Source: an uncultured Bacilli bacterium (lineage in GTDB: Bacteria; Bacillota_I; Bacilli_A; RF39; UBA660). Taken from it: a stretch of 36,877 bases of DNA. The stretch spans positions 1 to 36,877 of the forward strand of contig CANPYQ010000001.1 of the NCBI GenBank assembly GCA_947588865.1, in the 5' to 3' direction. Of this stretch, positions 6,837-20,035 are shown piece by piece (the first letter of the stretch is position 1; each line of letters begins with the position of its first letter). A program made the position numbers and the translations under genes. The notes below the pieces were generated by a model. The model did not search any database. It saw only the letters and a program-made list of their open reading frames with translations, and had not been told where the DNA came from.

Positions 6837-7961
6837 ATGCACGATAATATATTTGAAGGAATGGACTTTGGTCCGTTAAAAGAATATTTAGAAAATGATG
6901 ATATTACCGATATTTCTTATAGCAATAACGGGCAGGTTTGGTTGAAAACTTTATCAAAAGGAATTTTTAGAATTGAAAATCCAGCTATAAATAATGCATT
7001 TATGGAGAAACTTGCATTTCAATGTTCAAATGTTATGGGAAAAAGTTTTAATGCTGCACATCCTTTTTTGGATAGTGAGAGTGCAGAATTACGTATGAAT
7101 TTTGTCCATGATTCTATTGCAAAAAATGGAATCGCTTGTGTTATACGTAAAACACCGGCAAAAATTCGTTTAGAGAGAAACAAAATATTAAAAGAAAAAT
7201 ATATTACAGAAGACATATTGGACTTTTTAATAACTTGTGTACATGGACATTGTAATATAATTGTATGTGGAGAAACTGGATCTGGTAAGACAGAGTTCGT
7301 AAAATTCTTAGCTTCAAATACTTATGAAAATGAAAAATTAATAACTATAGAAGATACTTTGGAACTGCACTTGGATAGGATATATCCAAATAGAGATATT
7401 GTTGCTATGAAAACTAACAATATTGCTAGTTATTCAGATGTTCTAGTTACTTGTATGAGACAGAATCCTAAATGGATATTATTATCAGAGGTTCGTAGTG
7501 CAGAGGCTGTTATGGCTGTTAGAAACTCTATTTCTTCAGGTCACTATATATTATCAACTATACATGCTGATAAAGCAGCTTCTATTCCAAATCGTATGTA
7601 TAGTTTGCTTGAAACTAATCAAGATATTGAACAATTTTTGAAATCTATTTATAGATATATTCAAATAGGAGTATATATAAGGGGATATCAGGATAAAATT
7701 TCAAAGAGCTTTGTAAGAGAAATTGCTGAAGTTACAGAATTTTATGTAACTGAGGATAATGAAGCAAAATATAATACTTTGTATAAAAAAACTCCCGATG
7801 GAACTGTTTATAGGAAAAACCCAAGTAAATATTTAATAGAATATTTAGAGGCACAGGGAACGGTTTTACCAACAGGATTTATAAAAGAGGAATATGATAA
7901 AGATAATAAAGTTGTTGAAAAAAAATCTTTAAATGATAATAACGAAATAATTTTTGAATAG
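6837..7961 (+). CDS. CpaF/TadA-type (VirB11-superfamily) secretion ATPase
   Basis: Walker A GETGSGKT, Asp box TIEDTLEL, Walker B region RQNPKWILLSEVR, His box LSTIHA. It is followed by two TadB/C-like genes. Confidence 0.9.
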   Translation: MHDNIFEGMDFGPLKEYLENDDITDISYSNNGQVWLKTLSKGIFRIENPAINNAFMEKLAFQCSNVMGKSFNAAHPFLDSESAELRMNFVHDSIAKNGIACVIRKTPAKIRLERNKILKEKYITEDILDFLITCVHGHCNIIVCGETGSGKTEFVKFLASNTYENEKLITIEDTLELHLDRIYPNRDIVAMKTNNIASYSDVLVTCMRQNPKWILLSEVRSAEAVMAVRNSISSGHYILSTIHADKAASIPNRMYSLLETNQDIEQFLKSIYRYIQIGVYIRGYQDKISKSFVREIAEVTEFYVTEDNEAKYNTLYKKTPDGTVYRKNPSKYLIEYLEAQGTVLPTGFIKEEYDKDNKVVEKKSLNDNNEIIFE

Positions 7962-7972
7962 GAGGGAACAAT

Positions 7973-8875
7973 ATGAATATAACTATAATTTTTATAATTG
8001 TGTCTATACTAGCTATATTCCTAATTATATATAGGAGTAGTATTGGTGAACAAACTTATAAATATATAAGTACACAAAGTAGAAGATTATATAGTAAAGT
8101 TGCTCCTTATACATATAAAGAAATAAGAAAAAAAATAAAAGAATTAAAGCAAGATTATACAGTAACTCAGTATATTGGACAAGTAATATTATTTGCGGTA
8201 GGAGCTGGGGTCGTAACATATTTGTATTTTTACAGTTTAGTTGTATCTATAATTTATGCTGTACTTGCAGTCACAGCGGTACCATATATTAATTATTTAA
8301 GATGCAAAAGACTTTATAGCGAATTTATATTTGAACAAGTCCAAGTATATACGACAAATGTTATAATGGAGTTTGCGACAACTCAAAGTTTCGTTAAGTC
8401 ACTTGAAGGTGTGTATTCATCTGGTATATTGGAAGATCCTGTTAAACAAGACGTTAAAGCTATGATTGATATGGCATATGAGAATGGTACAATAAATCAA
8501 TCACTAGAGTATATGAACGAAAAATACGATTTTTATATGGTAAAAAATATGCATCAATTATTTTTACAAATAACTAATGAAGGATCAAAAGATGCTAGTG
8601 ATTCACTTGAAAATATGTCACTTGATATAGATATGCTTGTAGAAGCAGTTTATAGAGATAGGTTGGATAGAGAAGCCTTTTATAAAAAATTTATTAAATT
8701 TGGTTTAATATTATATTTGATGATAGGATTAGTACAAATAATGTTAGGAGACACATATCATAGTATGCTTAATTTATGGTATGTTAGACTTTTGTTACAT
8801 ATAATTGTAATTATAAATACTTATTTCTTATTATCTGGTACTAAATTTTATAATGAGAATGTGGGGGCTGAATAA
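7973..8875 (+). CDS. TadB-like (GspF/T2SSF-domain) pilus platform membrane protein
   Basis: RBS GGAGGG. The layout is N-terminal TM, central TM pair, a helical cytoplasmic domain (FEQVQVYTTNVIMEFATTQSFVKSLEGV...INQSLEYM) and C-terminal TM segments. This architecture and position are typical of TadB. Confidence 0.7.
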   Translation: MNITIIFIIVSILAIFLIIYRSSIGEQTYKYISTQSRRLYSKVAPYTYKEIRKKIKELKQDYTVTQYIGQVILFAVGAGVVTYLYFYSLVVSIIYAVLAVTAVPYINYLRCKRLYSEFIFEQVQVYTTNVIMEFATTQSFVKSLEGVYSSGILEDPVKQDVKAMIDMAYENGTINQSLEYMNEKYDFYMVKNMHQLFLQITNEGSKDASDSLENMSLDIDMLVEAVYRDRLDREAFYKKFIKFGLILYLMIGLVQIMLGDTYHSMLNLWYVRLLLHIIVIINTYFLLSGTKFYNENVGAE

Positions 8876-9666
8876 TGGAATTTTTAATAGTTACAATATT
8901 AATAATAATTATAGTTATTGTTAATAATATAGTTGATACTAGACGTTTTTTCGAACAAGTCAATCCATTCTTACAGAAATTTATGGAAAAAGACTATGAA
9001 TTCTTGCTTAGAGTAAAATATAAAGATAAGGATTTGGATGTAAATGCTCTTTTTTCAAGAAGAATAAGAGATGGTATTATAACTGCTGCAGTGTTAATAT
9101 TTCTTTTAGCGGTTACTGGGTATTTGAACTATATGTGGGCATTTGGTGCTTGCATAGGCGGATTTTTAGTATTTAAAAGTGGTTATACTAAGTTAAAAAC
9201 TTTTTATAAAGCAAGATTACATACAATGGATTCTATGCTTCCATATTATTTAAAGAGTTTGGAAATTTTAGTACAGCATTATACAGTTCCAGTTGCTCTA
9301 TCAAGAAGTATAGATACTGCTCCAGAGATATTTAGACCTGGACTTAGGAAATTAGTTGCTAGAATAGATGAAGGTGATGCATCTATTCAACCATATATTG
9401 ATTTTGCAAATGAATATCCAGTTAGGGATTCTATGCGTATGATGAGACTTTTATATCGTTTAGGATTAGGCTCAAATCAAGACAAACACGAGCAGATAAT
9501 GATGTTTTCAAAGACTGTATCATCACTTCAAAATAAAGCCCGTGAACAAAAATATAAAGACCGTTTAGAGTCTATGGAAAAAAGAACCATGATAATGTTG
9601 TTCGTAACAGGTGGTGGCGTTTTACTAGTTTTATTTATGTCAATGTCTGTTATGATGGGAATATAA
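8875..9666 (+). CDS. TadC-like (GspF/T2SSF-domain) pilus platform membrane protein
   Basis: TAATG stop/start overlap with the previous gene. The topology is the same TM / cytoplasmic helical domain / TM layout (LPYYLKSLEILVQHYTVPVALSRSI...PGLRKLVARIDEG). Confidence 0.7.
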   Translation: MEFLIVTILIIIIVIVNNIVDTRRFFEQVNPFLQKFMEKDYEFLLRVKYKDKDLDVNALFSRRIRDGIITAAVLIFLLAVTGYLNYMWAFGACIGGFLVFKSGYTKLKTFYKARLHTMDSMLPYYLKSLEILVQHYTVPVALSRSIDTAPEIFRPGLRKLVARIDEGDASIQPYIDFANEYPVRDSMRMMRLLYRLGLGSNQDKHEQIMMFSKTVSSLQNKAREQKYKDRLESMEKRTMIMLFVTGGGVLLVLFMSMSVMMGI

Positions 9667-9699
9667 TGTAAAAAAAATGTAAATAATATAATTAAAGTA

Positions 9700-9729
9700 T
9701 TGATTTTAATACTTTGATTGTTGTATAAT
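9700..9729 (+). promoter_or_regulatory. Dedicated promoter for the candidate major pilin gene
   Basis: TTGATT (9700-9705), 18-nt spacer, TATAAT (9724-9729). An 8-bp inverted repeat, aaagtatt (9694-9701) / aatacttt (9708-9715), overlaps the -35 element. Confidence 0.55.
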
Positions 9730-9765
9730 TAGTTTAGGATATTTAGAAAGTAGGTGAGGTTTTAA

Positions 9766-10032
9766 ATGAAAGAAGCAGCAGGAGAAGCAAATATGACAGT
9801 AATAACAATAGTTTTAATAGCTATAGTACTTGCAATCGGAACAATTATAGTAACTAATATGATGAACAATACTGGAAAAAATTCTGCTTGTTCAAGTGCA
9901 GGTGGTGTATGGAATAGTGGTAAATGTTATGCAGCAAGTTCATGTAAATACGATAATGGAAAAACTACGTGCTCAGGAACTACTTTAAGTTGTAAGGAAT
10001 CTGGTAATGATTGGATATGTGAATCAAAATAA
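9766..10032 (+). CDS. Small pilin-like protein (candidate major Flp-like subunit) with a Cys-rich head
   Basis: RBS AGGTGAGG. MKEAAG leader, hydrophobic helix EANMTVITIVLIAIVLAIGTIIV, then about 50 aa containing 6 Cys. The gene has its own promoter and terminator. Confidence 0.75.
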   Translation: MKEAAGEANMTVITIVLIAIVLAIGTIIVTNMMNNTGKNSACSSAGGVWNSGKCYAASSCKYDNGKTTCSGTTLSCKESGNDWICESK

Positions 10033-10050
10033 ATTTTTATTAAAAATTCG

Positions 10051-10073
10051 AGAGGGTATTTACCTTCTTTTTT
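10051..10073 (+). terminator. Rho-independent terminator after the pilin gene
   Basis: agagggt (10051-10057) pairs with accttct (10062-10068), including one G-U pair, around a 4-nt loop. A T5 run follows (10069-10073). Confidence 0.5.
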
Positions 10074-10320
10074 GTGCCGTAAATACGAATTTTATTACTA
10101 TTAAAGTTTTTTAACTGAAAAAAATTTTTATGTGAACCCCAAGTAGAAGACATTATGGCACTCTTAGGCTATTACTTAAAAGCCCATACTGTAATATAAA
10201 TTGAATCGTCGTAGGTGGCGTGAGAGGTATAAATATAAAATAGAAAGCTTTATTTAATTTTCTCTACTCGTTTATTAACACTAATTTGAATAAAAAATTT
10301 AAACGATTGACATAATATCA

Positions 10321-10350
10321 TTGACAAAACTTCTTTACAACTGTTATAAT
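10321..10350 (+). promoter_or_regulatory. Near-consensus sigma-A promoter for the minor-pilin / tadZ / VirB2-like operon
   Basis: TTGACA (10321-10326), 18-nt spacer, TATAAT (10345-10350). A second TTGACA lies at 10307-10312. Confidence 0.6.
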
Positions 10351-10386
10351 TATATAGGTATATAATAAGAAAAGAGGTAATGAGAA

Positions 10387-10839
10387 GTGAAAGAAAGCGT
10401 AGGTTATACAGTTACATTAAATATTGCGATAATGTTTATTATAATAGTTTTTGCTTTCCTTGCTGCAGCTCTTATATATTATAAAAGTAATAAAGTTAAT
10501 AATGTAATAATTAATTCACTAGAAAAGTATGAAGGATTTAATGATTTAGCTATTAATGAAATAAATAATAGTATGACAACTTTAGGCTATAATAGACATT
10601 CAATTAATTGTGGTGATAATATCAGTGATGATGGAAATGCATGTACATTAGTAGGTGACGGAGATAGTAAAGATAATGGTTATTGTGTTTATGTTTGTGT
10701 AGAAGAAAATAAGGATTACTATTATTTTAGGGTAAAGTCTTATATGATGATCAATGTACCTATTATAAATGAAATTTTAAATATTCCAATATTTTCAAAT
10801 TCAAATAGATTATATGATTTTGGCGATAGTTTTAAATGA
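10387..10839 (+). CDS. Minor pilin-like (TadE/TadF-like) protein, paralog 1
   Basis: GTG start after AGAGGT. MKESVG leader plus hydrophobic helix. It shares CVY, YYYF/YK-VK-[ST]-Y and PII-[NG]-E-[IL] motifs with the next gene. 4 Cys. Confidence 0.75.
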   Translation: MKESVGYTVTLNIAIMFIIIVFAFLAAALIYYKSNKVNNVIINSLEKYEGFNDLAINEINNSMTTLGYNRHSINCGDNISDDGNACTLVGDGDSKDNGYCVYVCVEENKDYYYFRVKSYMMINVPIINEILNIPIFSNSNRLYDFGDSFK

Positions 10840-10858
10840 TATTTAGGGATGTGATACT

Positions 10859-11290
10859 GTGAGAGAGGCAATAGGGAGTAGTTTATTACTTAGTGTGGTT
10901 GTTGTTTTTGTAGGACTAATAATATTATTTTTTGTAAATATATTATCTTATTCTAAAGCTTATAAAGCTAAGAATAGAATAATAGAAATTATTGAAAAAT
11001 ATGAGACATATTCAGAATCAAATTCAGAATCCAGTGAGTTAAATGAAATAAAGCAATCTTTACAAGATATGGGTTATCAGACGGGTGAATGTAAAAATGA
11101 GGATTCTAAAGATAATATAGCAAATAGTGGATATAAATATTGCGTTTATAGAATTGATGAAGAAGGCGGAACATATTATTATAAAGTAAAAACTTATGTT
11201 CAGTTCTATTTTCCAATAATAGGTGAACTCTTTAATCCACCGGTACAAAGTGAAACTAAAATATTAGGGAAAAGCTATGATTATGATTGA
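10859..11290 (+). CDS. Minor pilin-like (TadE/TadF-like) protein, paralog 2
   Basis: GTG start. MREAIG leader plus hydrophobic helix. Clear paralog of 10387-10839 (GYKYCVYRIDEEGGTYYYKVKTYVQFYFPIIGELFNPP). 2 Cys. Confidence 0.75.
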   Translation: MREAIGSSLLLSVVVVFVGLIILFFVNILSYSKAYKAKNRIIEIIEKYETYSESNSESSELNEIKQSLQDMGYQTGECKNEDSKDNIANSGYKYCVYRIDEEGGTYYYKVKTYVQFYFPIIGELFNPPVQSETKILGKSYDYD

Positions 11291-11304
11291 AAAGGGGAAA
11301 TATA

Positions 11305-12309
11305 ATGAATGTAATAGTGTCAAATAAAAATCAAATGTTGCTGGAAAATTTGGGCATAGATGTTATAAAAGAGATGAATGGTGAGTTTGATGTTGATGAA
11401 ATTATAGCTACTTTTCAAAACTTTTTTTACCAACGTATGATTTTAGATATTACTGCAATAAAAGATTATAGAAATATAAATAATTTGCAAAAATTATCTA
11501 TATCTTTAGATATGAGTAAAGTAATATTATTATTAGATGGCACAAATGATACTATGAATCCAGTGTTTTTATCTAATTTGGTATCTATGGGTATTTATAA
11601 TTTTACTAAAAATGTAGAAGGTATACAGTATCTTTATAATACTCCTAATACGTATCGAGATGTGGCACAATTTCATAGTTTAAATTCATCTTTAAGTGGT
11701 TCACAACCTGAACAACCTAACCCACAAGCTAGGTATATAGCTCCAGTGGTTACTAATTCAGAATCTGATTCGGATTTTTATGGAACTAGAATAATAGGTG
11801 TTAAAAATGTTACAAAGCAATCTGGTGCAAGTAGTTTAGTTTATATGATGAAAAATGAATTAGGTAAAAATTATGATGTAGTGGCTATTGAGGTAGATAA
11901 GACGGATTTTGTTTATTTTAAAGATAAATCTTTAGTATCTACAATTACTAGTGAAATTGGCACTGTTATAAATAAATATAAGAATAAAGATATAATACTT
12001 GTGGATATAAATAATAGCTTAGTTGCAGAAGGATTTTGTCAAGATGTTTTATATCTTGTAGAACCTACTATAATAAAGTTACAAAAATTAATGACTTTGA
12101 ATGCTGCAGCACTTCATAATTTAAAGAATAAAAAAATAATTTTAAATCAAAGTTTACTTAGCAGTAATGATGTCGCTAATTTTGAATATGAGGCAAGAAT
12201 AAAAGTGTTTTATAATTTGCCTCCATTAAATGAAAGAGATAAAAATATACCTGAACTTAACAATTTATTGATAAAGCTTGGATTTACTAAACAAAAATCA
12301 AATACGTAG
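11305..12309 (+). CDS. TadZ/CpaE-like protein: receiver-like N-domain plus a ParA/MinD-like domain with a degenerate P-loop
   Basis: The ORF track starts at TTG 11287. I prefer ATG 11305 after GGGGA (11294-11298). The N-domain has a CheY-like strand pattern (VIVSNK, MILDITA, KVILLLDG, GIYNFTKN). The C-domain RIIGVKNVTKQSGASSLVYMM...YDVVAIEVD...IILVDIN follows a ParA layout but lacks GK[ST]. Confidence 0.6.
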   Translation: MNVIVSNKNQMLLENLGIDVIKEMNGEFDVDEIIATFQNFFYQRMILDITAIKDYRNINNLQKLSISLDMSKVILLLDGTNDTMNPVFLSNLVSMGIYNFTKNVEGIQYLYNTPNTYRDVAQFHSLNSSLSGSQPEQPNPQARYIAPVVTNSESDSDFYGTRIIGVKNVTKQSGASSLVYMMKNELGKNYDVVAIEVDKTDFVYFKDKSLVSTITSEIGTVINKYKNKDIILVDINNSLVAEGFCQDVLYLVEPTIIKLQKLMTLNAAALHNLKNKKIILNQSLLSSNDVANFEYEARIKVFYNLPPLNERDKNIPELNNLLIKLGFTKQKSNT

Positions 12310-12317: not shown

Positions 12318-12767
12318 ATGAAAAATATATTTAAAATAGTTTTAAATTTTGTTTTAATATTTATAATAAACTTTATTTTTCTTGACTTTGTACATGCAAT
12401 TCAGTATAATAATTTTGATGAATCGGAATTTGTTAGTTGTGGTGAGAAACTAATTGACAATATTCCAGCAGTTCTTCCTAATGTAGTAAGTAAAATATAT
12501 TTGATTGTTCAAGTGGCAGTTCCTATAGTGCTAGTTATAATTGGTAGTATTGGTTTAATAAAATGTATAGTCGCATCTAAGGAAGATGAAATAAAAAAAG
12601 AACAACAAATTTTGATTAAAAGAGTTGTTTCAGCAGTAATTATATTTTTTATATTTACTGTAGTTAAATTTTTAATTAGTTTAGTTGCAGATAATAATAA
12701 TATTTTGGAATGTGCGGAATGTTTTATAGAAAACAATGATAAATGTGTTGTACAAAAAAATAACTAA
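12318..12767 (+). CDS. VirB2/TrbC-like two-TM pilin-like protein, paralog A
   Basis: RBS GGGGGA. Signal peptide, Cys near the mature N-terminus, TM1 VAVPIVLVIIGSIGLIK, loop SKEDEIKKEQQILIKR, TM2, and C-terminal ECAECF...KC. Confidence 0.7.
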   Translation: MKNIFKIVLNFVLIFIINFIFLDFVHAIQYNNFDESEFVSCGEKLIDNIPAVLPNVVSKIYLIVQVAVPIVLVIIGSIGLIKCIVASKEDEIKKEQQILIKRVVSAVIIFFIFTVVKFLISLVADNNNILECAECFIENNDKCVVQKNN

Positions 12768-12782
12768 GGAGTTACGGGAGTT

Positions 12783-13193
12783 ATGAAAAAGAAAGCGTTA
12801 AATATATTTATTCTTTTTACTGTGTTTTTTCCAGTTATAAGTATACATGCTATTGAAAAGGTATCTTGTGGGAATGTCACAGCTATTCCAGCTAAAATAC
12901 CAGAACTTACTAACTTTATTATGACTTTGGTTGAGGTTTTAGTACCTATTATTTTAGTTATAATGGGATCAATAGATTTAATAAAAGGAATATCATCACA
13001 GAAAGAAGATGAAATAAAAAAAGGGCAACAAATTTTGATAAAAAGAATTATTGTAGCAGTTATAATATTTATTGTAATAGTTGCAGTTAAATTTTTAGTT
13101 AGTATTGTTAATAATCCTGTTAATAGTAATAATATAGTTGATTGTATAGATTGTTTTTTGAATGGAAAGGAAAATTGTAAAAAGTGGAGGTAG
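12783..13193 (+). CDS. VirB2/TrbC-like two-TM pilin-like protein, paralog B
   Basis: Signal peptide, SCG, TM1 VLVPIILVIMGSIDLIKG, loop SQKEDEIKKGQQILIKR, TM2, and C-terminal DCIDCF...NC. Confidence 0.7.
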   Translation: MKKKALNIFILFTVFFPVISIHAIEKVSCGNVTAIPAKIPELTNFIMTLVEVLVPIILVIMGSIDLIKGISSQKEDEIKKGQQILIKRIIVAVIIFIVIVAVKFLVSIVNNPVNSNNIVDCIDCFLNGKENCKKWR

Positions 13194-13198
13194 TAATT

Positions 13199-13612
13199 AT
13201 GAAGAAAAAAATTTTATTTGTCGTTCTTTTGGGAATTTTAACTTTTAGCTTTTGTTCACCTGTTTTTGCTAAAAACATTTCATCTTGTGATTCTGTAATC
13301 TCAAGTAATGTTATAATAGATGAAAAAATACCAAATATAGTTAGTACTATTATAACAGTTATAAAGGTAGCTGTACCAGTATTATTGGTTATATTTGGAA
13401 TGATTGATTTAATGAAGGGTATAACATCACAAAAGGAAGATGAAATAAAAAAAGGACAATCATTATTTATAAAAAGACTTATATCAGGGGCTCTTGTGTT
13501 TTTTGTATTTACAATTGTACAATTAATTATAAGCTTTGTATCAGATGACGCTGATAACAATATAATGACTTGTGCTAGCTGTTTTATAAATAAAGAATGT
13601 CAATACAAATAA
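13199..13612 (+). CDS. VirB2/TrbC-like two-TM pilin-like protein, paralog C
   Basis: The ORF track starts at 13184. I prefer ATG 13199 after GGAGG. Signal peptide MKKKILFVVLLGILTFSFCSPVFA, SCD, TM1, loop SQKEDEIKKGQSLFIKR, TM2, and C-terminal TCASCF...EC. Confidence 0.7.
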   Translation: MKKKILFVVLLGILTFSFCSPVFAKNISSCDSVISSNVIIDEKIPNIVSTIITVIKVAVPVLLVIFGMIDLMKGITSQKEDEIKKGQSLFIKRLISGALVFFVFTIVQLIISFVSDDADNNIMTCASCFINKECQYK

Positions 13613-13628
13613 ATTATTAGGAGGATTT

Positions 13629-14741
13629 ATGGTTGATGCGTTAAAAAAACTAGATAAAAAATTTTTAATAATTGCTGGATGCATGGTTTTTTTACCAATT
13701 TTGTTTATTATTATTCTTGCTATTGTTCAAGGGTGTAGCAATAAAAAATTAACATATGAAAAATATGAAAGTAAAATGATTTCTGCGGCAGAAAAATATA
13801 TTAAAAAAGAAGATAAGAAACTTACAAACGAGGGTGAAAGTTATATAATTGACCTTAGCACATTAGTTGATAGTGATTATATTAAAGCAACAGAAGATGC
13901 ACTTGATGATACTTGTACTGGAAAAGTTATAGTTAGAAGAAATGGTTCATCAATCAAATCCAACGATGGAGGCTTTTTAAACTATATTCCATCGTTAAAA
14001 TGTGAGGGTTATAATTCAAATTCATTAATTAATTTAATAACTAAGAATATTGTTACTAGTGAATCTGGTTTATATAAAAATGGTGATGAATATATATTTA
14101 GGGGATCTAAAGTAGATAATTATATATCTTTCTTTGGTAAAGATTATAGGATACTTGGCGTAGATAGAAATGGGTTTGCTAAATTAATAGCGTCACAAAG
14201 TGACAGTGTCGATGTTTCTTGGGATATGAAATACAGTATAGAAACTAAAAGAGATACAGGCATAAATATATATAAAGATAGTAATATCCACGATAAATTA
14301 CTTGAATATTATGGTAATAAGAAGAAAATTTCACAAGATGCAAAAAAACATATTGTAGCGAATGATATATGTATAGGTAAGAGATATATTAATGATACTT
14401 CTCTTACTAGTGAATCCGATTGTTCACAAATTCTTAAAAATGAAATAATTACACTGATTAATATAACTGATTTTGCTAAAGCTAGTTTGGATAATAATTG
14501 TACAAGCATTGTTGCTAATTCTTGTAGGAATTATAACTATTTAAAAGCTTTGGGATTATGGACATGGACTGTTAATGGTGTAACAGATAATTCTTATGAA
14601 GCTTATTATTTGGGAAATGGAATAATAAGACATCAGGAAGCAAGTTCAAATGAATCATATAATGTTGTTATCCATATAGATTCTAATGAAATAGTTTTAT
14701 CTGGGGATGGATCTAAAAAAAATCCATATGTTATAAAATAA
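13629..14741 (+). CDS. Membrane-anchored (possibly lipoprotein) Cys-containing extracytoplasmic protein of unknown function
   Basis: RBS AGGAGG. N-terminal TM segment ending in IVQGC (imperfect lipobox). The following segment ISAAEKYI...LSTLVDSDYIKA...CTGKVIV loosely resembles the head start of type IV pilin-like proteins. 6 further Cys. Confidence 0.7.
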   Translation: MVDALKKLDKKFLIIAGCMVFLPILFIIILAIVQGCSNKKLTYEKYESKMISAAEKYIKKEDKKLTNEGESYIIDLSTLVDSDYIKATEDALDDTCTGKVIVRRNGSSIKSNDGGFLNYIPSLKCEGYNSNSLINLITKNIVTSESGLYKNGDEYIFRGSKVDNYISFFGKDYRILGVDRNGFAKLIASQSDSVDVSWDMKYSIETKRDTGINIYKDSNIHDKLLEYYGNKKKISQDAKKHIVANDICIGKRYINDTSLTSESDCSQILKNEIITLINITDFAKASLDNNCTSIVANSCRNYNYLKALGLWTWTVNGVTDNSYEAYYLGNGIIRHQEASSNESYNVVIHIDSNEIVLSGDGSKKNPYVIK

Positions 14742-14761
14742 ATTTATAAAATTGTTTAATG

Positions 14762-14790
14762 TTGACATTTGATGAAAAAAAATATATAAT
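14762..14790 (+). promoter_or_regulatory. Perfect-consensus sigma-A promoter driving paralog D
   Basis: TTGACA (14762-14767), 17-nt spacer, TATAAT (14785-14790). The spacer contains an A8 run (14775-14782). Confidence 0.7.
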
Positions 14791-14813
14791 GTCTTTAGGA
14801 TGGAGGAGAAAAA

Positions 14814-15185
14814 ATGTTATTAAAAATCGATACTCAAGGGCTATATACTTGTGGTAATTTAAATTTTGAGTTTTCTGGAACTTTTCCATATATAGTTAAT
14901 ATGGCAATTACTATTATAAAAATAGTTGTTCCTATTTTATTAATTATATTTGGAATGTTGGATTTGGGTAAAGCTGTTGTTGCATCTAAAGAAGATGAAA
15001 TAAAAAAGGGTCAACAAACTTTTATAAAAAGAGTAATAGCAGCTGTAATTGTATTTTTTGTAATTCAAATAGTTCAAATTGTAATTTCATTTGTTTCTAA
15101 TAAAGATCCAAATGTTGTAAATTGCTTTAATTGTTTTGTAAATGCCGATACCGAAAAAGGTTGTATTGATTTAGCTGGTGAGTAG
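14814..15185 (+). CDS. VirB2/TrbC-like two-TM pilin-like protein, paralog D (no N-terminal signal peptide)
   Basis: RBS GGAGGAG. TCG, TM1 IVVPILLIIFGMLDLGK, loop SKEDEIKKGQQTFIKR, TM2, and C-terminal NCFNCF...GC. The gene is flanked by its own promoter and a strong terminator. Confidence 0.75.
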   Translation: MLLKIDTQGLYTCGNLNFEFSGTFPYIVNMAITIIKIVVPILLIIFGMLDLGKAVVASKEDEIKKGQQTFIKRVIAAVIVFFVIQIVQIVISFVSNKDPNVVNCFNCFVNADTEKGCIDLAGE

Positions 15186-15275: not shown

Positions 15276-17393
15276 ATGTATGTATTATCACTAAATATGT
15301 GGTTTCAAAAATTAATTAGACAATTTTTCTTTGCGATTGATAAAATTGTTTATAATTTTATACCTGCTATATATGACTTACTTATATCAATTGCGAGAAC
15401 TTCTCCTATTTCACAGGCAGATATATCTGATATGGCTAATAGAATATATAAACTATTAACAATTTTTATGATATTTAAGGTAACTTTTTCCCTTATTATG
15501 TATGTTGTTAATCCAGATGATTTTTCTGATAAATCAAAAGGTTTATCTAAACTCGGAACTAATATAATAATATCTTTAGCTCTATTAATTATAACACCTT
15601 ATATATTTAGTTATGCCTATCAACTACAAACTATTATTCTTGAAGATAACTCTTTAGCTACTTTAATATTTGGCGAAAACAATAATAAAACATTTTTTAA
15701 TACAGCTGGGGATGATATGGCTTTCATTGTCATGAGCCCATTTTTTACTCCAAATACAGCACAAAGGGAGTTATATGATTGTACTGAACTTGTAGTAAGG
15801 CAAAATGGAGTAGAATTATTTAATCCATCTTGTTCTGGATTTGATGAAAATGGTAATAAAAATAATGATGATACTTCTCTTGCTGCTCTAATTAATAAGA
15901 ACTATTTCCCTGAAGATGACTTAAAAACTTATGTAGCTGGTGTAAATTCGGGTAACTTGGGACTTATGTTTAGACAAGATATAGCCTTGGCAACAAAGGA
16001 TAATGATTGGTTTATAATAGATTATAAATATATATTTAGTACTGTGGTTGGGATCGTTGTTGTCTTTCTTCTTATAACTTTTTGTATGGATGTTGCTTTA
16101 CGAAGCATTAAACTTGCATTTTTACAGTTAGTTGCACCAATTCCAATTATATCTTATGTTGATCCTAAAAGTGGAAAAGATGGATTGTTTAAGAAATGGT
16201 ATCAGATGTGTTTTAAAACATTCGCAAGTTTATTTGTAAGGCTTATTGCACTTTATTTTGGGGTTTTCATAATAAGCAAGGTAGCAGATAGAAAATTAGT
16301 GGATATAATAGATGGATCCTATGTATCTAATGGTTTAATAGCGATATTTATAATAATAGGTGCTTTAATGTTTGCTAAACAATTACCAAAGATACTAGAA
16401 GGATTAGGTATTAAATTAGATGGAGATGGTAAGTTCTTCTTGAATCCACTTAAGAAATTTGAAGAGCAAGCAATAGGTGGTAAAAATGTAACTGGAATGG
16501 CCAGGGGAGCTCTAGTTGGAACTGCTGGTGCATTGACTGGGGCAGGACTTGCTGCTGGGCTTTCTGGCGCTTGGCGAGGATTAAAAAATGGAAAAGGTTG
16601 GACTGAGACAGGTAAAGCTACTGCAGAGATGAATAGAAAAATGCGTCAAGCAAAATTAAATGGTTCAACTTTTGCAGGCAGAATGGGTGCTAGGGTTACT
16701 AATGCAACAGGACTAAGGAGTCAGAGTGAGTCTATTGAAAAGCAAAAAAATGCACTTCAAAAAGAAATAGATGTAATTGAAGGTGAGAAAAAACGACTTG
16801 AAGCTCAAATAGCACCAGAAAAAACTAAAATTAGAAATAATGAAAGTACATCTTCTGCAATAAAAGCTATGCAAGATAGAGCTGTTTCAAAAGTAAAAGA
16901 AGGTAATGGTGCACAGGGTACAACATATCAAGAACTACTCAGAGCTGCTGAGGCCATTAAAAATAATAATTTTGGGAGTCCGAGACTTATAACTGATAGT
17001 TTAGGAAATAGTTATACTGTAACTAATGCTAATAAAGGTGCAATTGCCAAAGAAATAGAACAAAGAGCTGAAAGGTATGCAAATGTAGAGGGTAGAGATG
17101 CATGGCTTGATGATGCGTTATCATCAGGCTCTGATACTAAATTAACAAATTTATATAGTGAATATAAGACAAAGGCGAATATTAGTGGGCATGATATAAA
17201 AGCAACTGCTTCTGATTTAGATAATCAAAGTAAAACAATTTCAACTGATACAACTAATATTAAAAATAATATTGCAACAACAGAACAAAGCATTAGCAAT
17301 AAAGAAGATGAAATTAAAGAAAAAAATGTTAAAATGCAAGAATTTAACAAGAAAGAAAAAGTTGCTAAAGCAAATGAAGATGCTATTAAGTAA
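15276..17393 (+). CDS. VirB6/TrbL-like polytopic T4SS membrane protein with a Gly-rich and coiled-coil C-terminal extension
   Basis: RBS AAGGAGG. There are at least 6 hydrophobic helices in the first ~400 aa, then GALVGTAGALTGAGLAAGLSGAW and a long charged coiled-coil tail. The gene lies immediately upstream of the VirB3-like and VirB4 genes. Confidence 0.6.
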   Translation: MYVLSLNMWFQKLIRQFFFAIDKIVYNFIPAIYDLLISIARTSPISQADISDMANRIYKLLTIFMIFKVTFSLIMYVVNPDDFSDKSKGLSKLGTNIIISLALLIITPYIFSYAYQLQTIILEDNSLATLIFGENNNKTFFNTAGDDMAFIVMSPFFTPNTAQRELYDCTELVVRQNGVELFNPSCSGFDENGNKNNDDTSLAALINKNYFPEDDLKTYVAGVNSGNLGLMFRQDIALATKDNDWFIIDYKYIFSTVVGIVVVFLLITFCMDVALRSIKLAFLQLVAPIPIISYVDPKSGKDGLFKKWYQMCFKTFASLFVRLIALYFGVFIISKVADRKLVDIIDGSYVSNGLIAIFIIIGALMFAKQLPKILEGLGIKLDGDGKFFLNPLKKFEEQAIGGKNVTGMARGALVGTAGALTGAGLAAGLSGAWRGLKNGKGWTETGKATAEMNRKMRQAKLNGSTFAGRMGARVTNATGLRSQSESIEKQKNALQKEIDVIEGEKKRLEAQIAPEKTKIRNNESTSSAIKAMQDRAVSKVKEGNGAQGTTYQELLRAAEAIKNNNFGSPRLITDSLGNSYTVTNANKGAIAKEIEQRAERYANVEGRDAWLDDALSSGSDTKLTNLYSEYKTKANISGHDIKATASDLDNQSKTISTDTTNIKNNIATTEQSISNKEDEIKEKNVKMQEFNKKEKVAKANEDAIK

Positions 17394-17413: not shown

Positions 17414-17734
17414 ATGGACAATTCATATTTAATACCTGCTAACTCAAAAAAAAGTATTCTTATTTTTGGTGTATTTAATACATTTGATTTAGTATTATTT
17501 GGAACTGGACTTGGAATATCATTTTTACTAATGATGTTCCTTCCAATTAACAATTTTTGGATCGCAATTTTATCAATTACTCCTGGTATTATATGTGGTT
17601 TTTTGGTTTTCCCAATACCAAATTATCATAATGTTAGAACTGTAATTAAGAATGCTTGGATATTTTATACTACAAGACAAAGATATATATGGAAAGGTTG
17701 GTGTGCTGGTGATGGCGAAGCAAGTAAAAAGTAA
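17414..17734 (+). CDS. PrgI/TcpE/VirB3-like small two-TM T4SS protein
   Basis: 106 aa, with two hydrophobic helices (ILIFGVFNTFDLVLFGTGLGISFLLMMF and WIAILSITPGIICGFLVF). Its position directly before VirB4 is typical. Confidence 0.6.
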   Translation: MDNSYLIPANSKKSILIFGVFNTFDLVLFGTGLGISFLLMMFLPINNFWIAILSITPGIICGFLVFPIPNYHNVRTVIKNAWIFYTTRQRYIWKGWCAGDGEASKK

Positions 17735-18251
17735 ATATACTGATATACCTATAAAAAATATCACTAATGGTGTTATTATACTTGATAATAATCAAAAAGT
17801 TACGGGTGTTAAAATAATGCCAAGAAATATATTTATTCTTGATCCTGATATGCAAAATGCAATAATAACGAATTTAAAAAATGTCTATAATGCAATAGAC
17901 TATGAGTTTTGGATTGTTGTTGCTGATAGACCTGTTGATATTAATGTATACTTATCTCAATTACAATTGTTATATAATCAAATAAATGATACAAAAAAAA
18001 GAAAATTGATATTAGAAGATATTAATAAAGCTAATATGTTTATGAATAACAATGTTGTTGATACAGAATATTTCTTACTATTTAAGGATAAGGATAATGA
18101 TTTATTACAGAAAAGAATACGTAACTTAATAAATAATTTTGCAAGTGCAGGACTCACTGCTTTTCAGACTACAAATGATGATTTGAGAATGATTCTTGAT
18201 AATTTCTTAAATGGTGGACAAACTACTACATTTGGGACGGTGTTAGCGTAA
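17712..18251 (+). CDS. VirB4 N-terminal-domain-like protein (separate ORF)
   Basis: The ORF track starts at 17652, inside the previous gene. I prefer ATG 17712 (MAKQVKSKYTDIPIKNITNGVIILDNNQKVTGVKIMPRNIFIL...). This resembles the N-terminus of Firmicutes VirB4-type ATPases. It ends in a TAATG overlap with the ATPase gene. Confidence 0.6.
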   Translation: MAKQVKSKYTDIPIKNITNGVIILDNNQKVTGVKIMPRNIFILDPDMQNAIITNLKNVYNAIDYEFWIVVADRPVDINVYLSQLQLLYNQINDTKKRKLILEDINKANMFMNNNVVDTEYFLLFKDKDNDLLQKRIRNLINNFASAGLTAFQTTNDDLRMILDNFLNGGQTTTFGTVLA

Positions 18252-20035
18252 TGGATATAAAAAGTCAAATAGCTCCAAAAGGGTTGGAGTTTAAATCTAA
18301 TGAATTTATAATAAGTGATAAATATGCTTGCATATTAACTATAATATCATATCCTAAATTTATATATCCAGGCTATTTAAGTAGTTTAACAAGTATGTCT
18401 GGAATTAAAGTGGTAATTAAGCATATACCATTACCATTTAGTAGTATAAGCAAAATGTTAAACAAGGAATTAGCTGATTTAAGGCAAAGATATCAAGAGG
18501 AGAAAGATAAAACAATTCAGGAAAGAATAAGACAGGACTATGAGTCATTAGAAATGTTTGTTAGTGAGCTCGCTGCCAGTCAATCTAAAATATATGATTT
18601 TCAAATGCATGTTATGATAACAGCAGATACACAAGAAGATTTAGATTTGAAAAAGGTTCAAGTAAAAAATTATTTAGAAGCTATGGAAATGAGGGGAATA
18701 CCTCTTAGATTTGAACAAGATAAAGTATTAAAATCTATTTTACCTATATATGGTAAACAAGATATTGAGGATAGAATAGGTACTCCTATTCCAACTCCCA
18801 CTATAGCAGCAATGTATCCATTTATATTTGACAGTATAAAAGATCCAGGACTTTCAACATTACTTGGAATTGATTTTTCAGGTGGTGTAATTCTGTTTAA
18901 TCAGTTTTTGTATCAAATAAAAAAGGAACATAATAGAAATAATGCTAACATGATTATTTTAGGTACATCTGGTAGTGGTAAATCTACTGCTGCAAAATTG
19001 TTATTAAGAAGTCATATTAGAAATAATAATCAAATTGTTGTTATAGATCCTGAGGGAGAATTAGAGGAAATGACAAAATCTTTTGATGGAGATTTTATAA
19101 GTCTTGGAAAAGGTGGAGCATTCGGAATGATTAATCCACTTGAAGTAATAGTAGATGCAGATGATGAAGAGATGAACCAAGGACTTGGTTATACTGTTTT
19201 TACTCGTACTTTACAGACTATAAAGGCATTCTTAAAATATTATGATCCTAGTATAACTGAGGATGTAGTTAATATGTTCAGTGAGATTGTTCAAGAAACT
19301 TATAAAAGATTTGGGATAGATTTTAATTCAGATTTTACAAAATTTAAACCAGAGGATTTTCCAACATTTAAGGATGTATATGCTACGATAAAGGGTAGAA
19401 TATTATCTATGCCAGAAAAAAGTCAAGAAAAGGATGTTCTTGAAAAATTAGAAATAAAAATAAGACCAATAATTAGAGAGCTTAGATATTATTTTGATGG
19501 ACATACAACAATAAAACCTAAAAGTAATTTTATAGTATTTAACATAAAAGAACTTATGAATGCGGATAGTAATATAAGAAATGCTTTATTCTTTAATATA
19601 TTGAAATATGCTTGGGGTCTTACGCTTGATAGTACAGTAAATACTATTATGATGGTTGATGAAGCACATGTTCTCCTTAGCGGAGGTAATACTTTAGGAG
19701 CTGACTTTTTAGCTCAAATACAAAGAAGGGCTAGAAAATATAATACAGGTACAATAATAATAACGCAACAACCTACAGATTTTAGTGATCAAAGTGTTAT
19801 TACGCAAGGAAAAGCTATATTTGATAACGCATCATATTATCTTGTAATGGGATTAAGAAAACAAGCTGTAGATGATTTAGCTAAACTTATTGATTTAAAT
19901 GATAATGAGAAAGAAAGTATTAAGCAATATGGACAAGGAGAGGCACTATTTGTGTGTGGCTCTAGACGTATGAGAATAAATGTGATTGTATCAGATGAAG
20001 AGTTAGATGCATTTGGAAGTGGCGGCGGATTATAG
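18251..20035 (+). CDS. VirB4-family T4SS ATPase (central and ATPase domains)
   Basis: Walker A GTSGSGKST, Walker B IMMVDEAH, IIITQQPTDF. The N-terminal IAPKGLEFKSNEFIISDKYACILTIISYPKFIYPGYLS matches the conserved VirB4/TraE middle-region pattern. Confidence 0.9.
   Translation: MDIKSQIAPKGLEFKSNEFIISDKYACILTIISYPKFIYPGYLSSLTSMSGIKVVIKHIPLPFSSISKMLNKELADLRQRYQEEKDKTIQERIRQDYESLEMFVSELAASQSKIYDFQMHVMITADTQEDLDLKKVQVKNYLEAMEMRGIPLRFEQDKVLKSILPIYGKQDIEDRIGTPIPTPTIAAMYPFIFDSIKDPGLSTLLGIDFSGGVILFNQFLYQIKKEHNRNNANMIILGTSGSGKSTAAKLLLRSHIRNNNQIVVIDPEGELEEMTKSFDGDFISLGKGGAFGMINPLEVIVDADDEEMNQGLGYTVFTRTLQTIKAFLKYYDPSITEDVVNMFSEIVQETYKRFGIDFNSDFTKFKPEDFPTFKDVYATIKGRILSMPEKSQEKDVLEKLEIKIRPIIRELRYYFDGHTTIKPKSNFIVFNIKELMNADSNIRNALFFNILKYAWGLTLDSTVNTIMMVDEAHVLLSGGNTLGADFLAQIQRRARKYNTGTIIITQQPTDFSDQSVITQGKAIFDNASYYLVMGLRKQAVDDLAKLIDLNDNEKESIKQYGQGEALFVCGSRRMRINVIVSDEELDAFGSGGGL

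Follow-up and report, generated by a model that had tools for sequence, protein, structure and literature searches.

A tandem array of divergent VirB2-like candidate pilin genes beside a type IV secretion locus of an uncultured gut Bacilli bacterium

Are the small two-helix proteins encoded in tandem beside the type IV secretion system (T4SS) genes of an uncultured gut Bacilli bacterium pilin subunits, and are they interchangeable or differentiated? Reviews describe Gram-positive T4SS classes as being without virB2 homologues and the pilin arrays of Patescibacteria as unique among monoderms, in agreement with the remark of an earlier reading of this DNA (the sequence-only reading) that such pilins are not described for classic Firmicutes conjugation systems. 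That reading had proposed an array of VirB2/TrbC-type pilins, possibly interchangeable through gene conversion, in the 36,877-nt stretch analysed here (the window).

Layout and predicted topology of the paralogs

Five genes of the window are concerned, four in the array and one distal to it:

12318..12767, + strand: pilin-like paralog 1, 149 aa (ORF, alignment, PF18895 17.3 bits, E 0.005, position-1 orthogroup)
12783..13193, + strand: pilin-like paralog 2, 136 aa (ORF, alignment, BLASTP to copy 1)
13199..13612, + strand: pilin-like paralog 3, 137 aa (ORF, alignment, AF2, PF18895 17.9 bits, E 0.0034)
14814..15185, + strand: pilin-like paralog 4, 123 aa (ORF, alignment, orthologs, promoter, PF18895 15.9 bits)
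30337..31419, + strand: distal fifth paralog, 360 aa (PF18895 27.3 bits, E 3.8e-6, model positions 8-71 of 71)

The ORFs of copies 1-4 lie exactly where the sequence-only reading had placed them. The mechanical ORF of paralog 3 begins at GTG 13184, and the fifth copy has an alternative start at 30319, hence a length of 360-366 aa.

All five paralogs share a layout in which a signal peptide or short N-terminal tail is followed by one Cys, helix 1, a charged turn with invariant K-E/D-D-E-I/M-K-K..K-R, and helix 2. In paralog 1 this takes the form of a signal peptide (ending ..VHA, before IQ), a Cys-bearing ectodomain segment, helix 1, the turn KEDEIKKEQQILIKR, helix 2 and a CAECF..C tail. In the multiple alignment copies 1-4 all have the TM1 pattern, KEDEIKK(G/E)Q(Q/S)x(L/F)IKR, a single N-terminal Cys and the CxxCF...C tail (present in 4/5 paralogs), and P69, I74, G76, K88, D90, E91, K93, K94, Q96, K101, R102 and F110 are invariant. 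Four Cys, one in the N-terminal ectodomain and three in the C-tail, are 95-100% conserved among 150 family representatives. Identity to copy 1 is 38-50% in this alignment and identity to copy 2 is 43-53% in a second one; copy 2 shares 46% identity with copy 1 (BLASTP) and likewise 46% with copy 3 (second alignment). BLAST scores between paralog pairs (80-110 bits) are far above chance. The ORFs, alignment and BLAST therefore agree with the two-TM paralog array of common layout that had been read from the sequence. Of the loop given there as S-[KQ]-KEDEIKK, the KEDEIKK segment stands, but copies 1 and 4 have A-S before K-E-D-E.

Copy 5 consists of a signal peptide, a ~250-aa Cys-rich ectodomain and a C-terminal two-helix pilin-like module (KDDEMKKAQSRFVKR), which is 27% identical to copy 1 in the alignment and is without the CxxCF tail. 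Position-2 orthologs in relatives often have 100-190 aa of additional N-terminal ectodomain (total length 205-316 aa), and many family members carry fused ectodomains, GDSL lipase, abhydrolase, S9 peptidase and dockerin among them. The RNase R-adjacent position is also occupied by pilin-family genes in three related loci, of copy-5 type in L076 and best matching copy 3 in L062 and L071.

A Sec-type signal peptide is present in copies 1-3 and 5, while copy 4 has a short acidic N-tail. The helices are strongly hydrophobic (Kyte-Doolittle 19-mer peaks of 2.3-3.2), and the AF2 model of paralog 3 (pLDDT 79.6) comprises a signal-peptide helix, a hairpin with helices of 34-35 residues each (43-76, 80-114) and a short C-terminal helix. 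Between the helices there are 6 K/R against 4 D/E, and the terminal regions of copies 1-4 each contain 1-4 K/R, with a net charge that is acidic or close to neutral. Because the inter-helix region is basic and the termini acidic, an N-out/C-out topology is predicted; model and charge counts bear out the earlier description of two hydrophobic helices around a short basic loop. Foldseek searches with the hairpin model returned generic helical hairpins only, with none at E<=1e-3 and no pilin.

Family relationships and genomic setting

The paralogs are members of an unnamed family of very large size (9277 clusters at 50% identity, E<=1e-3), and PF18895 (T4SS_pilin) is their sole consistent family match, spanning both helices in 4/5 copies. 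Copy 5 passes the PF18895 cut-off (27.3 vs 26.6 bits); copies 1, 3 and 4 fall below it, and their 16-18 bits are within decoy noise against random TM families (up to 20 bits). Copy 2 had no PF18895 match at E<=1. The model was matched by 104/121 homologs at E<=0.1 (best 1.8e-7), by only 12/150 diverse family representatives at E<=1e-3, and by 0/10 composition-matched segment-shuffled or reversed decoys. Classical VirB2/TrbC (PF04956) was not matched in Pfam, and profile-profile comparison with Agrobacterium-type VirB2 detected no similarity (hhalign probability 0.1-0.3%). No pilin-like NCBIfam model was matched at E<=1, and there was no sequence match to solved structures. The VirB2/TrbC identity first proposed is thus retained as a link to T4SS_pilin and lost as regards PF04956; on profile evidence the family appears to be a divergent relative of PF18895 that weakly resembles pilus subunits of machines for DNA and protein transfer.

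The array sits in a ~25-kb cluster, after a Tad-like pilus module and, as the sequence-only reading had it, directly upstream of VirB6/VirB3/VirB4:

5537..12309, + strand: upstream Tad-like pilus module (PF17424 E 5.9e-50, PF00437 E 2.2e-26, cpaB TIGR03177 E 5e-4, TIGR02788/TIGR03819)
13629..14741, + strand: 370-aa protein within the array, with N-terminal TM helix and Cys-rich extracellular domain, in 40 related loci
14762..14790, + strand: sigma-70-type promoter-like site TTGACA-17-TATAAT (12/12), 23 nt upstream of paralog 4
15276..17393, + strand: VirB6/TrbL-like polytopic channel protein (PF19597 TrbL_4 E 1.3e-8; NF045848 MMCAP2_0566 E 6e-7)
17414-17734, + strand: VirB3-like (NF045975 Mbov_0397 VirB4 E 0.089)
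about 17712-18251, + strand: VirB4 N-terminal TraC-like domain (NF045975 E 8.6e-14)
18251-20035, + strand: VirB4 ATPase (NF045975 E 1.9e-102)
20056..24001, + strand: CHAP protein and M23 peptidase with a lipoprotein gene between (PF05257 E 8.8e-10; PF01551 E 2.8e-25; LPAM_1)
24989..27091, + strand: VirD4-type coupling protein (PF02534 E 7.7e-57; NF045973 conju_CD1115 294.5 bits, cut-off 250)

The Tad-like module, syntenic in 48-71 related loci, encodes DUF5411, a CpaB-like protein (weak match), a TadA/VirB11-type ATPase, a pair of polytopic proteins, a small pilin-like gene that has a terminator of its own, two TadE-like proteins and a putative TadZ-like protein of 340 aa; a terminator-like site lies at 10050-10069. 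The 370-aa protein had no Pfam or NCBIfam match at curated cut-off. It is not VirB8/NTF2-like; the only significant PDB fold match of its AF2 model (pLDDT 92.2) is the Thomasclavelia ramosa IgA peptidase 9qa6 (E 9.5e-6, TMq 0.40). The VirB6/TrbL-like protein ends in a long coiled-coil C-terminus, and VirB3, the VirB4 N-domain and the ATPase each have an ORF of their own (17414..20035), a split into three also found in 57-61 related loci. The CHAP and M23 hydrolases, the latter with a weak lysozyme-like end, may by their position fill the VirB1 role. Among the window ORFs scanned there was no relaxase or integrase domain and, apart from CHAP and M23 of the T4SS block, no phage or lysis gene.

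Synteny of the cluster extends to about 60-70 species-level "Bacilli bacterium" gut MAGs, and conserved housekeeping genes flank it, in the recurring order cluster, rhodanese, RmuC, DUF2238, copy 5, RNase R, SmpB, SpoVG. VirB6 was found in 66/83 and VirB4 in 57/83 related loci, counts limited by contig ends, and arrays of 2-8 copies in 74/84 sources (the 83 related loci and the window). Identity across loci is 74-93% for VirB4, 73-94% for the T2SSE ATPase and 64-82% for RNase R and SmpB. In essentially all loci long enough to judge, homologs lie in T4SS/Tad clusters, and tblastn against 50,697 phage and 72,556 plasmid records gave no match.

Position-specific orthogroups and the shared 19-mer

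Signal peptide, promoter and length vary from one array position to another. Copy 4, without a signal peptide, opens the VirB6-VirB3-VirB4 transcription unit, and in 24/24 four-copy loci a promoter-like 11-12/12 match lies 17-33 nt upstream of its ortholog. Among 72 regions upstream of copies 1-3 only one scores as high (L011 copy 1, 11/12), and no promoter-like site there is conserved across loci. Copy 4 is also the most conserved paralog, with a mean ortholog identity of 68% vs 55-58% for copies 1-3.

The turn is conserved at the DNA level, as had been noticed, in three exact 19-mers (GAAGATGAAATAAAAAAAG at 12582, 13005 and 13436; chance expectation 0.05 matches), with near-copies at 14991 (1 mismatch) and 31276 (2 mismatches). 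The copy at 14991, described as one A shorter, is in fact an in-frame AAA to AAG substitution. Given the peptide, the chance of three copies sharing all six codons is about 0.017. Codon identity at identical motif residues is 0.73 within loci vs 0.67 between unrelated loci, and nucleotide identity breaks off at synonymous sites on either side of the motif (AAG/AAA preceding it, GAA/GGG/GGA/GGT following). The shared 19-mer is largely due to an invariant peptide combined with A/T-biased codons. For 96/96 paralogs the nearest foreign relative sits at the same array position, and just 1/96 has a closer relative among the paralogs of its own locus; within-locus identity of pairs 1-2 and 1-3 is slightly above that between loci (0.54 vs 0.48-0.49). 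By sequence comparison, then, the paralogs form ancient orthogroups, each tied to its place in the array, and the earlier idea of interchangeable subunits maintained by gene conversion is therefore unsupported.

A VirB2-like subunit reading and its rivals

The reading that we favour, at a probability of roughly 55%, is that the five genes encode differentiated PF18895-type VirB2-like structural subunits of a vertically inherited chromosomal monoderm (MPF-FATA/Mycoplasma-ICE-like) T4SS, apparently without a relaxase.

A credible though less probable view is that the paralogs are membrane-resident accessory subunits of the translocon around VirB6/VirB3/VirB4 that form no extracellular fibre and touch the ATPases with the charged turn, akin to other small membrane proteins that are specific to particular Gram-positive T4SS. 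The gene context would be the same, and the strong helix hydrophobicity, the lack of structure or profile match to bona fide pilins, and reviews according to which no conjugative pili are known from Gram-positive T4SS would all fit. However, no family other than PF18895 is matched consistently, the locus already has a VirB3-like gene of its own, the signal peptides, Cys quartet and large (some enzymatic) ectodomain fusions suggest an extra-membrane function, and 34-35-residue helices exceed bilayer need. That the two-helix module serves the upstream Tad-like pilus or is a general membrane anchor for ectodomains, its T4SS adjacency being incidental, is unlikely. The array sits right between the Tad-like module and VirB6, ectodomain fusions are common in the family, dispersed copies occur (copy 5 beside RNase R, away from both modules), and locus L046 has the Tad-like module and one copy-4-type gene with no T4SS genes before rhodanese. 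Against this, L056 combines the T4SS with the 370-aa protein and a single copy and has no Tad-like module in 8.7 kb upstream, copy 4 shares its conserved promoter and tight spacing with VirB6-VirB3-VirB4, and there is the PF18895 similarity. The paralogs are also unlike Flp/Tad pilins, which contain just one hydrophobic helix and are processed by a prepilin peptidase.

It is very improbable that the copies are antigenically variable cassettes reshuffled by gene conversion via the 19-nt core, on the model of the Anaplasma and Bartonella VirB2 paralogs. The 19-mers, their codon sharing and the slight within-locus excess of pairs 1-2 and 1-3 could be so explained, but the position-specific orthology, the similar codon identity within and between loci, the loss of identity at flanking synonymous sites and the differences between positions all speak against it. 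Anaplasma phagocytophilum and Bartonella likewise have several tandem divergent VirB2-type genes in one T4SS locus; theirs, however, are true PF04956 VirB2 of diderm pathogens, thought to serve antigenic or host-range variation, whereas the window copies are stable orthogroups tied to position and show no sign of concerted evolution. A small size, two TM helices and a charged loop are typical of holin and bacteriocin-immunity classes, so that membrane proteins unrelated to secretion also come to mind. This reading has next to no probability given the failure to match phage and plasmid records, the absence of phage or lysis genes among the window ORFs scanned (CHAP/M23 being inside the T4SS block), the signal peptides and the conserved extracellular Cys; a holin or immunity identity is ruled out by the T4SS/Tad context.

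As VirB2-like subunits, the proteins would each have their extracellular ends tied by disulfides, and K-E-D-E-I-K-K-G-Q-Q-x-F-I-K-R at the cytoplasmic turn may be a docking or extraction motif for VirB4/VirB3/VirB6 that, by analogy with VirB2/TraA pili, would line the lumen after assembly. Copy 4 would be the major, core subunit. The signal-peptide-bearing copies 1-3 would be minor subunits, together with the forms that have a large ectodomain, namely copy 5, the position-2 orthologs of 205-316 aa and, in relatives, the fusions to lipase, esterase or peptidase; these would decorate or tip a short heteromeric wall-spanning stalk or pilus and carry adhesive or enzymatic ectodomains. The adjacent Tad-like pilus probably gives cell-cell contact, and contact-dependent exchange with other cells, not the self-transfer of a mobile element, is the probable role of the whole system.

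Compared with VirB2/TrbC (PF04956) and F-type TraA, the paralogs share a signal-peptide-processed precursor, two hydrophobic helices joined by a short, basic loop on the cytoplasmic side, predicted N-out/C-out topology and a gene beside virB3/virB4/virB6. They differ in having no detectable sequence or profile similarity, longer helices, Cys-rich termini, no sign of cyclisation or acetylation, and a monoderm envelope without a VirB7/9/10 outer-membrane core complex. Mycoplasma ICEs resemble the locus in that Mbov_0397 and MMCAP2_0566 are the best NCBIfam matches of its VirB4 and VirB6, and in having a minimal monoderm T4SS with small hairpin membrane proteins (CDS13/CDS15 in the ICE) upstream of VirB6 and VirB4. 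Unlike them, the window has VirB3, the VirB4 N-domain and the ATPase as three ORFs instead of one fusion, has wall hydrolases, and is without ICE hallmarks (DDE transposase, relaxase-like gene).

The concept is not new, as arrays of 2-11 divergent VirB2-like (PF18895/PF04956) genes beside a relaxase-less MPF-FATA-like T4SS are known in Patescibacteria, including an essential six-gene array in Ca. Southlakia epibionticum ML1 and another in Nanosynbacter lyticus TM7x (PMC12102498; PMC12857230). In both settings, tandem divergent small two-helix PF18895-type genes, at times interrupted by a non-pilin gene, stand beside a monoderm-type VirB3/VirB4/VirB6/VirD4 set in a chromosomal locus without a relaxase, in a reduced-genome host that also encodes a pilus system. 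The window host differs in being a low-GC Bacilli lineage. Compared by description, its paralogs are closer to one another (38-50% to copy 1, against an average of 25% in CPR arrays) and have the invariant KEDEIKKGQQxFIKR turn and four-Cys pattern; most are below the PF18895 cut-off, the array forms one supercluster with the Tad-like module, and VirB1-type hydrolases are present. Arrays of this kind have so far been reported only from ultra-small Patescibacteria; here, a candidate array lies in a conserved chromosomal secretion locus of uncultured gut Bacilli.

Paralog sequence and predicted topology

The pilin-like genes of the window comprise an array of four and a fifth, separate copy:

12318-12767, + strand, copy 1 ORF
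12783-13193, + strand, copy 2 ORF
13199-13612, + strand, copy 3 ORF
14814-15185, + strand, copy 4 ORF
30319/30337-31419, + strand, copy 5, a 360-aa secreted protein with the two-helix module at its C-terminus and without the CxxCF tail

The ORFs and an alignment bear out the description of four paralogs and a fifth copy given in the sequence-only reading. Copies 2-4 are 38-50% identical to copy 1, and 12 alignment columns are invariant, including the proline and glycine of helix 1, the K-x-D-E-x-K-K-x-Q...K-R segment and the phenylalanine of helix 2. In all four array members a single cysteine lies in the short stretch preceding helix 1, and the protein has a C-x-x-C-F...C tail. Two details needed correction. 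The loop consensus S-[KQ]-K-E-D-E fails in copies 1 and 4, which read A-S-K-E-D-E, and the motif at 14991, described as one A shorter, has an in-frame AAA to AAG change and no deletion.

Copies 1-3 and 5 have Sec signal peptides with an AXA-like site (VHA/I, IHA/I, VFA/K and ISA/A, respectively), and copy 4 begins with only a 25-30-residue acidic tail, without a signal peptide. The AlphaFold2 model of copy 3 (mean pLDDT 79.6; based on 121 homologs) has helices at residues 43-76 and 80-114 with a three-residue turn between them, followed by a short C-terminal helix. In this model, what had been read as a loop is made up of the turn and the charged N-terminal half of helix 2. The inter-helix region contains 6 K/R vs 4 D/E, and the terminal regions of copies 1-4 (1-4 K/R at each end) are net acidic or near neutral, so the positive-inside rule predicts an N-out/C-out orientation with the KEDEIKK turn in the cytoplasm. 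The features expected of a VirB2-like protein (signal peptide, two hydrophobic helices, basic cytoplasmic loop, N-out/C-out) are therefore present by prediction, the signal peptide in copies 1-3 and 5. The four cysteines are conserved at 95-100% among 150 diverse representatives of the family, and two disulfides tying together both extracellular ends would fit this quartet.

A conserved cluster around the array

Every gene in the window is on one strand, and the array is part of a longer run of secretion-related genes:

5537-12309, Tad-like module, upstream of the array
13629-14741, conserved, membrane-anchored, Cys-rich 370-aa protein, embedded between copies 3 and 4
downstream of the array, VirB6/TrbL-like gene (PF19597, NF045848)
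17414-20035, VirB3-like gene, VirB4 N-domain and VirB4 ATPase (NF045975, the Mycoplasma-ICE VirB4 family, E 1.9e-102)
after the VirB4 ATPase, CHAP hydrolase, lipoprotein and M23/lysozyme-like hydrolase
after the hydrolases, VirD4 (NF045973, score above cut-off)

The array ends 91 nt upstream of VirB6. VirD4 is followed by rhodanese, RmuC, DUF2238, a 330-aa protein, copy 5, RNase R, two CapA genes, SmpB and SpoVG. No relaxase or integrase domain was found among the window ORFs scanned. The VirB4 region is in three parts: a VirB3-like protein of 106 aa (17414-17734), which has a weak alignment (E 0.089) with the N-terminal end of the Mbov_0397 VirB3-VirB4 fusion and is kept in 61 loci; a TraC-like N-terminal domain of about 179 aa, with a probable ATG at 17712 and a 23-nt overlap with the preceding ORF; and an ATPase of 594 aa whose start overlaps the stop of the ORF before it. 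Jointly they align to the 894-aa fusion family NF045975. A frameshifted pseudogene is ruled out, as the same split is kept in 57-61 related loci and is thus a natural arrangement.

The Tad-like module contains DUF5411, a weak CpaB-like gene, a TadA/VirB11-type ATPase, two polytopic proteins, a small pilin-like gene (pil88) and two TadE-like genes. DUF5411 ties the module to a predicted CpaF/PilC system of Roseburia, Ruminococcus and Eubacterium (PMC9523054). A promoter-like site of its own and a terminator-like hairpin (10050-10069) accompany the pil88 gene (9766-10032). Its product and those of 10387-10839 and 10859-11290 start with M-K/R-E-x-x-G followed by a hydrophobic helix, which looks like a prepilin-type leader; the Flp G/XXXXEY motif is missing from these three small proteins, and no prepilin peptidase was recognised. 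In the PDB, the high-confidence AlphaFold2 model of the embedded 370-aa protein (pLDDT 92.2) has one significant fold match only, to a domain in the IgA peptidase of Thomasclavelia ramosa (9qa6; TMq 0.40, E 9.5e-6, 281 columns), and the idea that it is a VirB8/TcpC-like NTF2 component was dropped for this reason.

Several other genes of the region deserve mention. The cluster opens with a secreted, Cys-rich 913-aa protein (430-3171) that has a PGDPGD stretch and a weak dockerin-like match (E 0.0024); it occupies the same position in only 6 related loci. The 330-aa protein (29305-30297) is Lys-rich and its N-terminus (YYELLGL...) is J-domain-like by eye; it has no Pfam match at E<=0.01 and no homolog in the 83 related loci. 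Between RNase R and SmpB lie tandem CapA/PGA_cap paralogs (33623-35916; 381 aa each, with N-terminal membrane anchors), both of which match the single CapA-like ORF, at 4924, detected in the related locus L076. In another locus, L056, the VirB6 homolog is 1054 aa long and has a tract of (G/E)-(S/P)-T-(S/P)-N pentapeptide repeats, of about 300 residues by eye.

Looking up exact proteins and scanning a single genome from each species yielded confirmed relatives, at least 269 in number. Among them, the best 77 loci come almost wholly from gut MAGs named "Bacilli bacterium", the other sources being Acholeplasma sp. CAG:878, Firmicutes bacterium CAG:884 and Mollicutes/Tenericutes MAGs. We take the two CAG genomes to be RF39 in GTDB and, more generally, the genome-reduced uncultured gut Bacilli that carry the cluster to be RF39-like. 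A literature search linking RF39 with T4SS or pili returned nothing relevant. The entire cluster of about 25 kb is syntenic among relatives; among 83 related loci VirB6 was found in 66, VirB4 in 57 and the T2SSE ATPase in 53, counts that are limited by contig ends. Across loci, sequence identity is 74-93% for VirB4 and 73-94% for the T2SSE ATPase, and 64-82% for RNase R and SmpB of the same genomes, and the downstream housekeeping flank is kept in five loci (L037, L062, L071, L076 and L080). Together, this indicates that the locus is chromosomal and passed on vertically, and is not a mobile element.

Arrays hold 1-8 pilin-like genes, with at least two in 74 of 84 sources (the 83 related loci and the window). 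They lie beside virB4/virB6 as multi-gene arrays, the PF18895-type context that has been used to define CPR VirB2 arrays. Family members with large ectodomains are dispersed in L076 (same contig as L001), at 308-2685 and 9506-10636, two of them (430 and 368 aa) just upstream of RNase R and a third (376 aa) beyond SpoVG, so the family is not confined to the T4SS array.

Proposed pilin identity, alternatives and paralog history

A profile of the five copies, searched against 1.84 billion representatives of 50%-identity clusters, found 9277 clusters at E<=1e-3, of which 4440 were at E<=1e-10; the same profile found more than 4199 proteins in the 90% collection. Names or precomputed Pfam domains are almost absent across the family. 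N-terminal extensions of 100-300 aa are common among the members, and C-terminal ones occur in some. Fusion partners among the representatives P0121-P0269 include GDSL lipase, Abhydrolase_2, prolyl-oligopeptidase S9, a PHB-depolymerase-type esterase, dockerin and the Listeria-Bacteroides repeat. Such fusions occur in a few members, and suggest that the two-helix module can serve to anchor or display enzymes and adhesins outside the cell.

The sole consistent Pfam match of the paralogs is PF18895 (T4SS_pilin; gathering threshold 26.6 bits). Copy 5 scores above the threshold (27.3 bits, E 3.8e-6), copies 1, 3 and 4 score below it (17.3, 17.9 and 15.9 bits), and copy 2 has no match at E<=1. The matches span positions 3-71 of the 71-position model, i.e. 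both helices. PF18895 is matched at E<=0.1 by 104 of 121 family members (best 1.8e-7), and at E<=1e-3 by just 12 of 150 diverse representatives. None of ten decoys, shuffled within segments or reversed with segment composition kept, matched PF18895 at E<=1; against various unrelated TM families the decoys scored as high as 20 bits. The link is thus sequence-specific yet weak. By these comparisons the paralogs appear to form a divergent sister group of PF18895 that the Pfam threshold mostly misses, with marginal membership of PF18895 and none of PF04956.

Similarity to VirB2 itself, which the sequence-only reading had expected at profile level, was not recovered. The Pfam scan of the paralogs gave zero matches to PF04956 (TrbC/VirB2) at E<=1, and hhalign comparison of the family profiles with an alignment of 120 validated VirB2 homologs gave probabilities of 0.1-0.3%, with sensitivity limited by two narrow profiles (Neff of about 3-4). 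The seed of that VirB2 alignment was an A. tumefaciens VirB2 sequence 99% identical to the UniRef VirB2 entry. Against all PDB chains the family profile returned noise (GPCR, arenavirus signal peptide; E 0.04-0.4), and a Foldseek search of the PDB with the copy 3 model, a method of low power for short helical hairpins, returned generic hairpins, none of them a pilin or at E<=1e-3, an outcome that is neutral on a pilin fold. The pilin-like families of Mollicutes ICEs gave no match either: an NCBIfam scan of the five copies at E<=1 gave MamI and pyrophosphatase noise and no conjugal-transfer or pilin model. The Mycoplasma-ICE model in question is presumably the Mbov_0395 family of pilin-like conjugal transfer proteins. 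The proposal that the paralogs are T4SS pilins is therefore partly supported, by context, topology and the weak but specific PF18895 signal, with no VirB2 match found by profile or structure.

Other identities fit less well. Holins or bacteriocin-immunity proteins, which the sequence-only reading had named as the contrary case, would be expected among phage-lysis or bacteriocin genes. A tblastn search with copy 3 found no match in 72,556 plasmids or 50,697 phage records, so the family is not on known plasmids or phages at that sensitivity, and the homologs in related loci sit in the T4SS/Tad cluster. A VirB3/PrgI-type protein was also rejected, since the slot adjacent to VirB4 is occupied by a different gene (17414-17734). 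A link of the paralogs to the Tad-like system is less probable than one to the T4SS, and two loci, both natural module-loss variants, bear on it in opposite ways. In L056 (1-13602) the T4SS genes are accompanied by the 370-aa gene and one copy, and the 8.7 kb upstream holds RecA, RNase Y and radical-SAM genes and no Tad-like module. In L046 (8413-10657) the Tad-like module is followed by one copy-4-type gene, whose C-tail is without CxxCF, and then directly by rhodanese, with no T4SS genes between them. These two loci, at one observation each, together with the promoter before copy 4 described below, favour the T4SS as the partner of the paralogs.

The relationships among the copies were compared in the 24 loci with the layout of three copies, the 370-aa gene and one copy (96 proteins). 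The nearest foreign relative was at the same array position for all 96, and only one was closer to a paralog of its own locus, so the paralogs are older than these species, with a separate constraint acting on each. The sequence-only reading had suggested that shared 19-nt cores could support gene conversion between copies. The 19-mer GAAGATGAAATAAAAAAAG does occur in three exact copies, one with one mismatch and one with two, against a chance expectation of 0.05. Given the peptide, however, sharing of the six codons has P of about 0.10 for two copies and about 0.017 for three. Per-codon identity in the motif is 0.73 within loci vs 0.67 between unrelated loci, and nucleotide identity breaks off at the synonymous sites on either side. 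An invariant peptide encoded with A/T-biased codons largely accounts for the 19-mer, and position-specific orthology in 96 of 96 proteins argues, with the codon figures, against both gene conversion and cassette switching; the gene-conversion idea is rejected.

Copy 4 stands out, with a mean ortholog identity of 68% vs 55-58% for the remaining paralogs. It is preceded by a promoter-like TTGAC(A/T)-17/18-TATAAT that matches at 11-12 of 12 positions in all 24 loci. Upstream of copies 1-3, 1 of 72 regions scores as high (copy 1 of L011, 11/12), and none is conserved across loci. The lack of a signal peptide, the highest conservation and the conserved promoter suggest that copy 4 heads a VirB6-VirB3-VirB4 unit, and mark it out as the leading candidate for the role of major or core subunit. 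Large ectodomains are frequent on the relatives' counterparts of copies 1-3 and 5, and these copies may be minor, decorating or tip subunits of the putative pilus.

Comparison with Patescibacteria and significance

The concept of a pilin array beside a T4SS is already known from Patescibacteria, where 2-11 divergent VirB2-like (PF04956/PF18895) genes adjoin a relaxase-less MPF-FATA-related T4SS, and where Ca. Southlakia epibionticum has a six-gene array that is essential (PMC12102498; PMC12857230). Reviews describe virB2 homologues as missing from Gram-positive T4SS classes, and Patescibacteria as unique among monoderms in possibly elaborating T4SS pili (PMC12857230; PMC12102498). Whether their pilins came with an MPF-FATA-type system or were co-opted has been left open "given their absence in MPF-FATA" (PMC12102498; PMC12857230). 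The window locus has the same kind of array in a different phylum. Unlike the Patescibacteria arrays, its paralogs are more identical to one another and share an invariant charged turn and a Cys quartet, and the locus shows fixed positional orthology, fusion to a Tad-like module and VirB1-type hydrolases.

A bolder reading, with a probability of roughly one in four, is that RF39-like gut Bacilli have, as a core chromosomal trait, a T4SS without relaxase that assembles a heteromeric VirB2-like pilus and acts jointly with a Tad-like pilus, as a Firmicutes counterpart, and possible evolutionary source, of the Patescibacteria apparatus. The apparatus to which it is likened is the essential T4SS, pilin array and type IV pilus of epibiotic members. 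If this is true, these gut Bacilli would live by contact-dependent exchange with other cells, and monoderm MPF-FATA-type T4SS would have had pilins ancestrally.

A very large, unannotated PF18895-related family sits in conserved arrays within the Mycoplasma-ICE/Firmicutes-type T4SS of gut Bacilli, which makes the origin of the Patescibacteria pilins directly testable. For the organisms themselves, the cluster is a conserved machine of about 25 kb, probably related to cell contact, in an abundant uncultured gut lineage, and it could guide co-culture.
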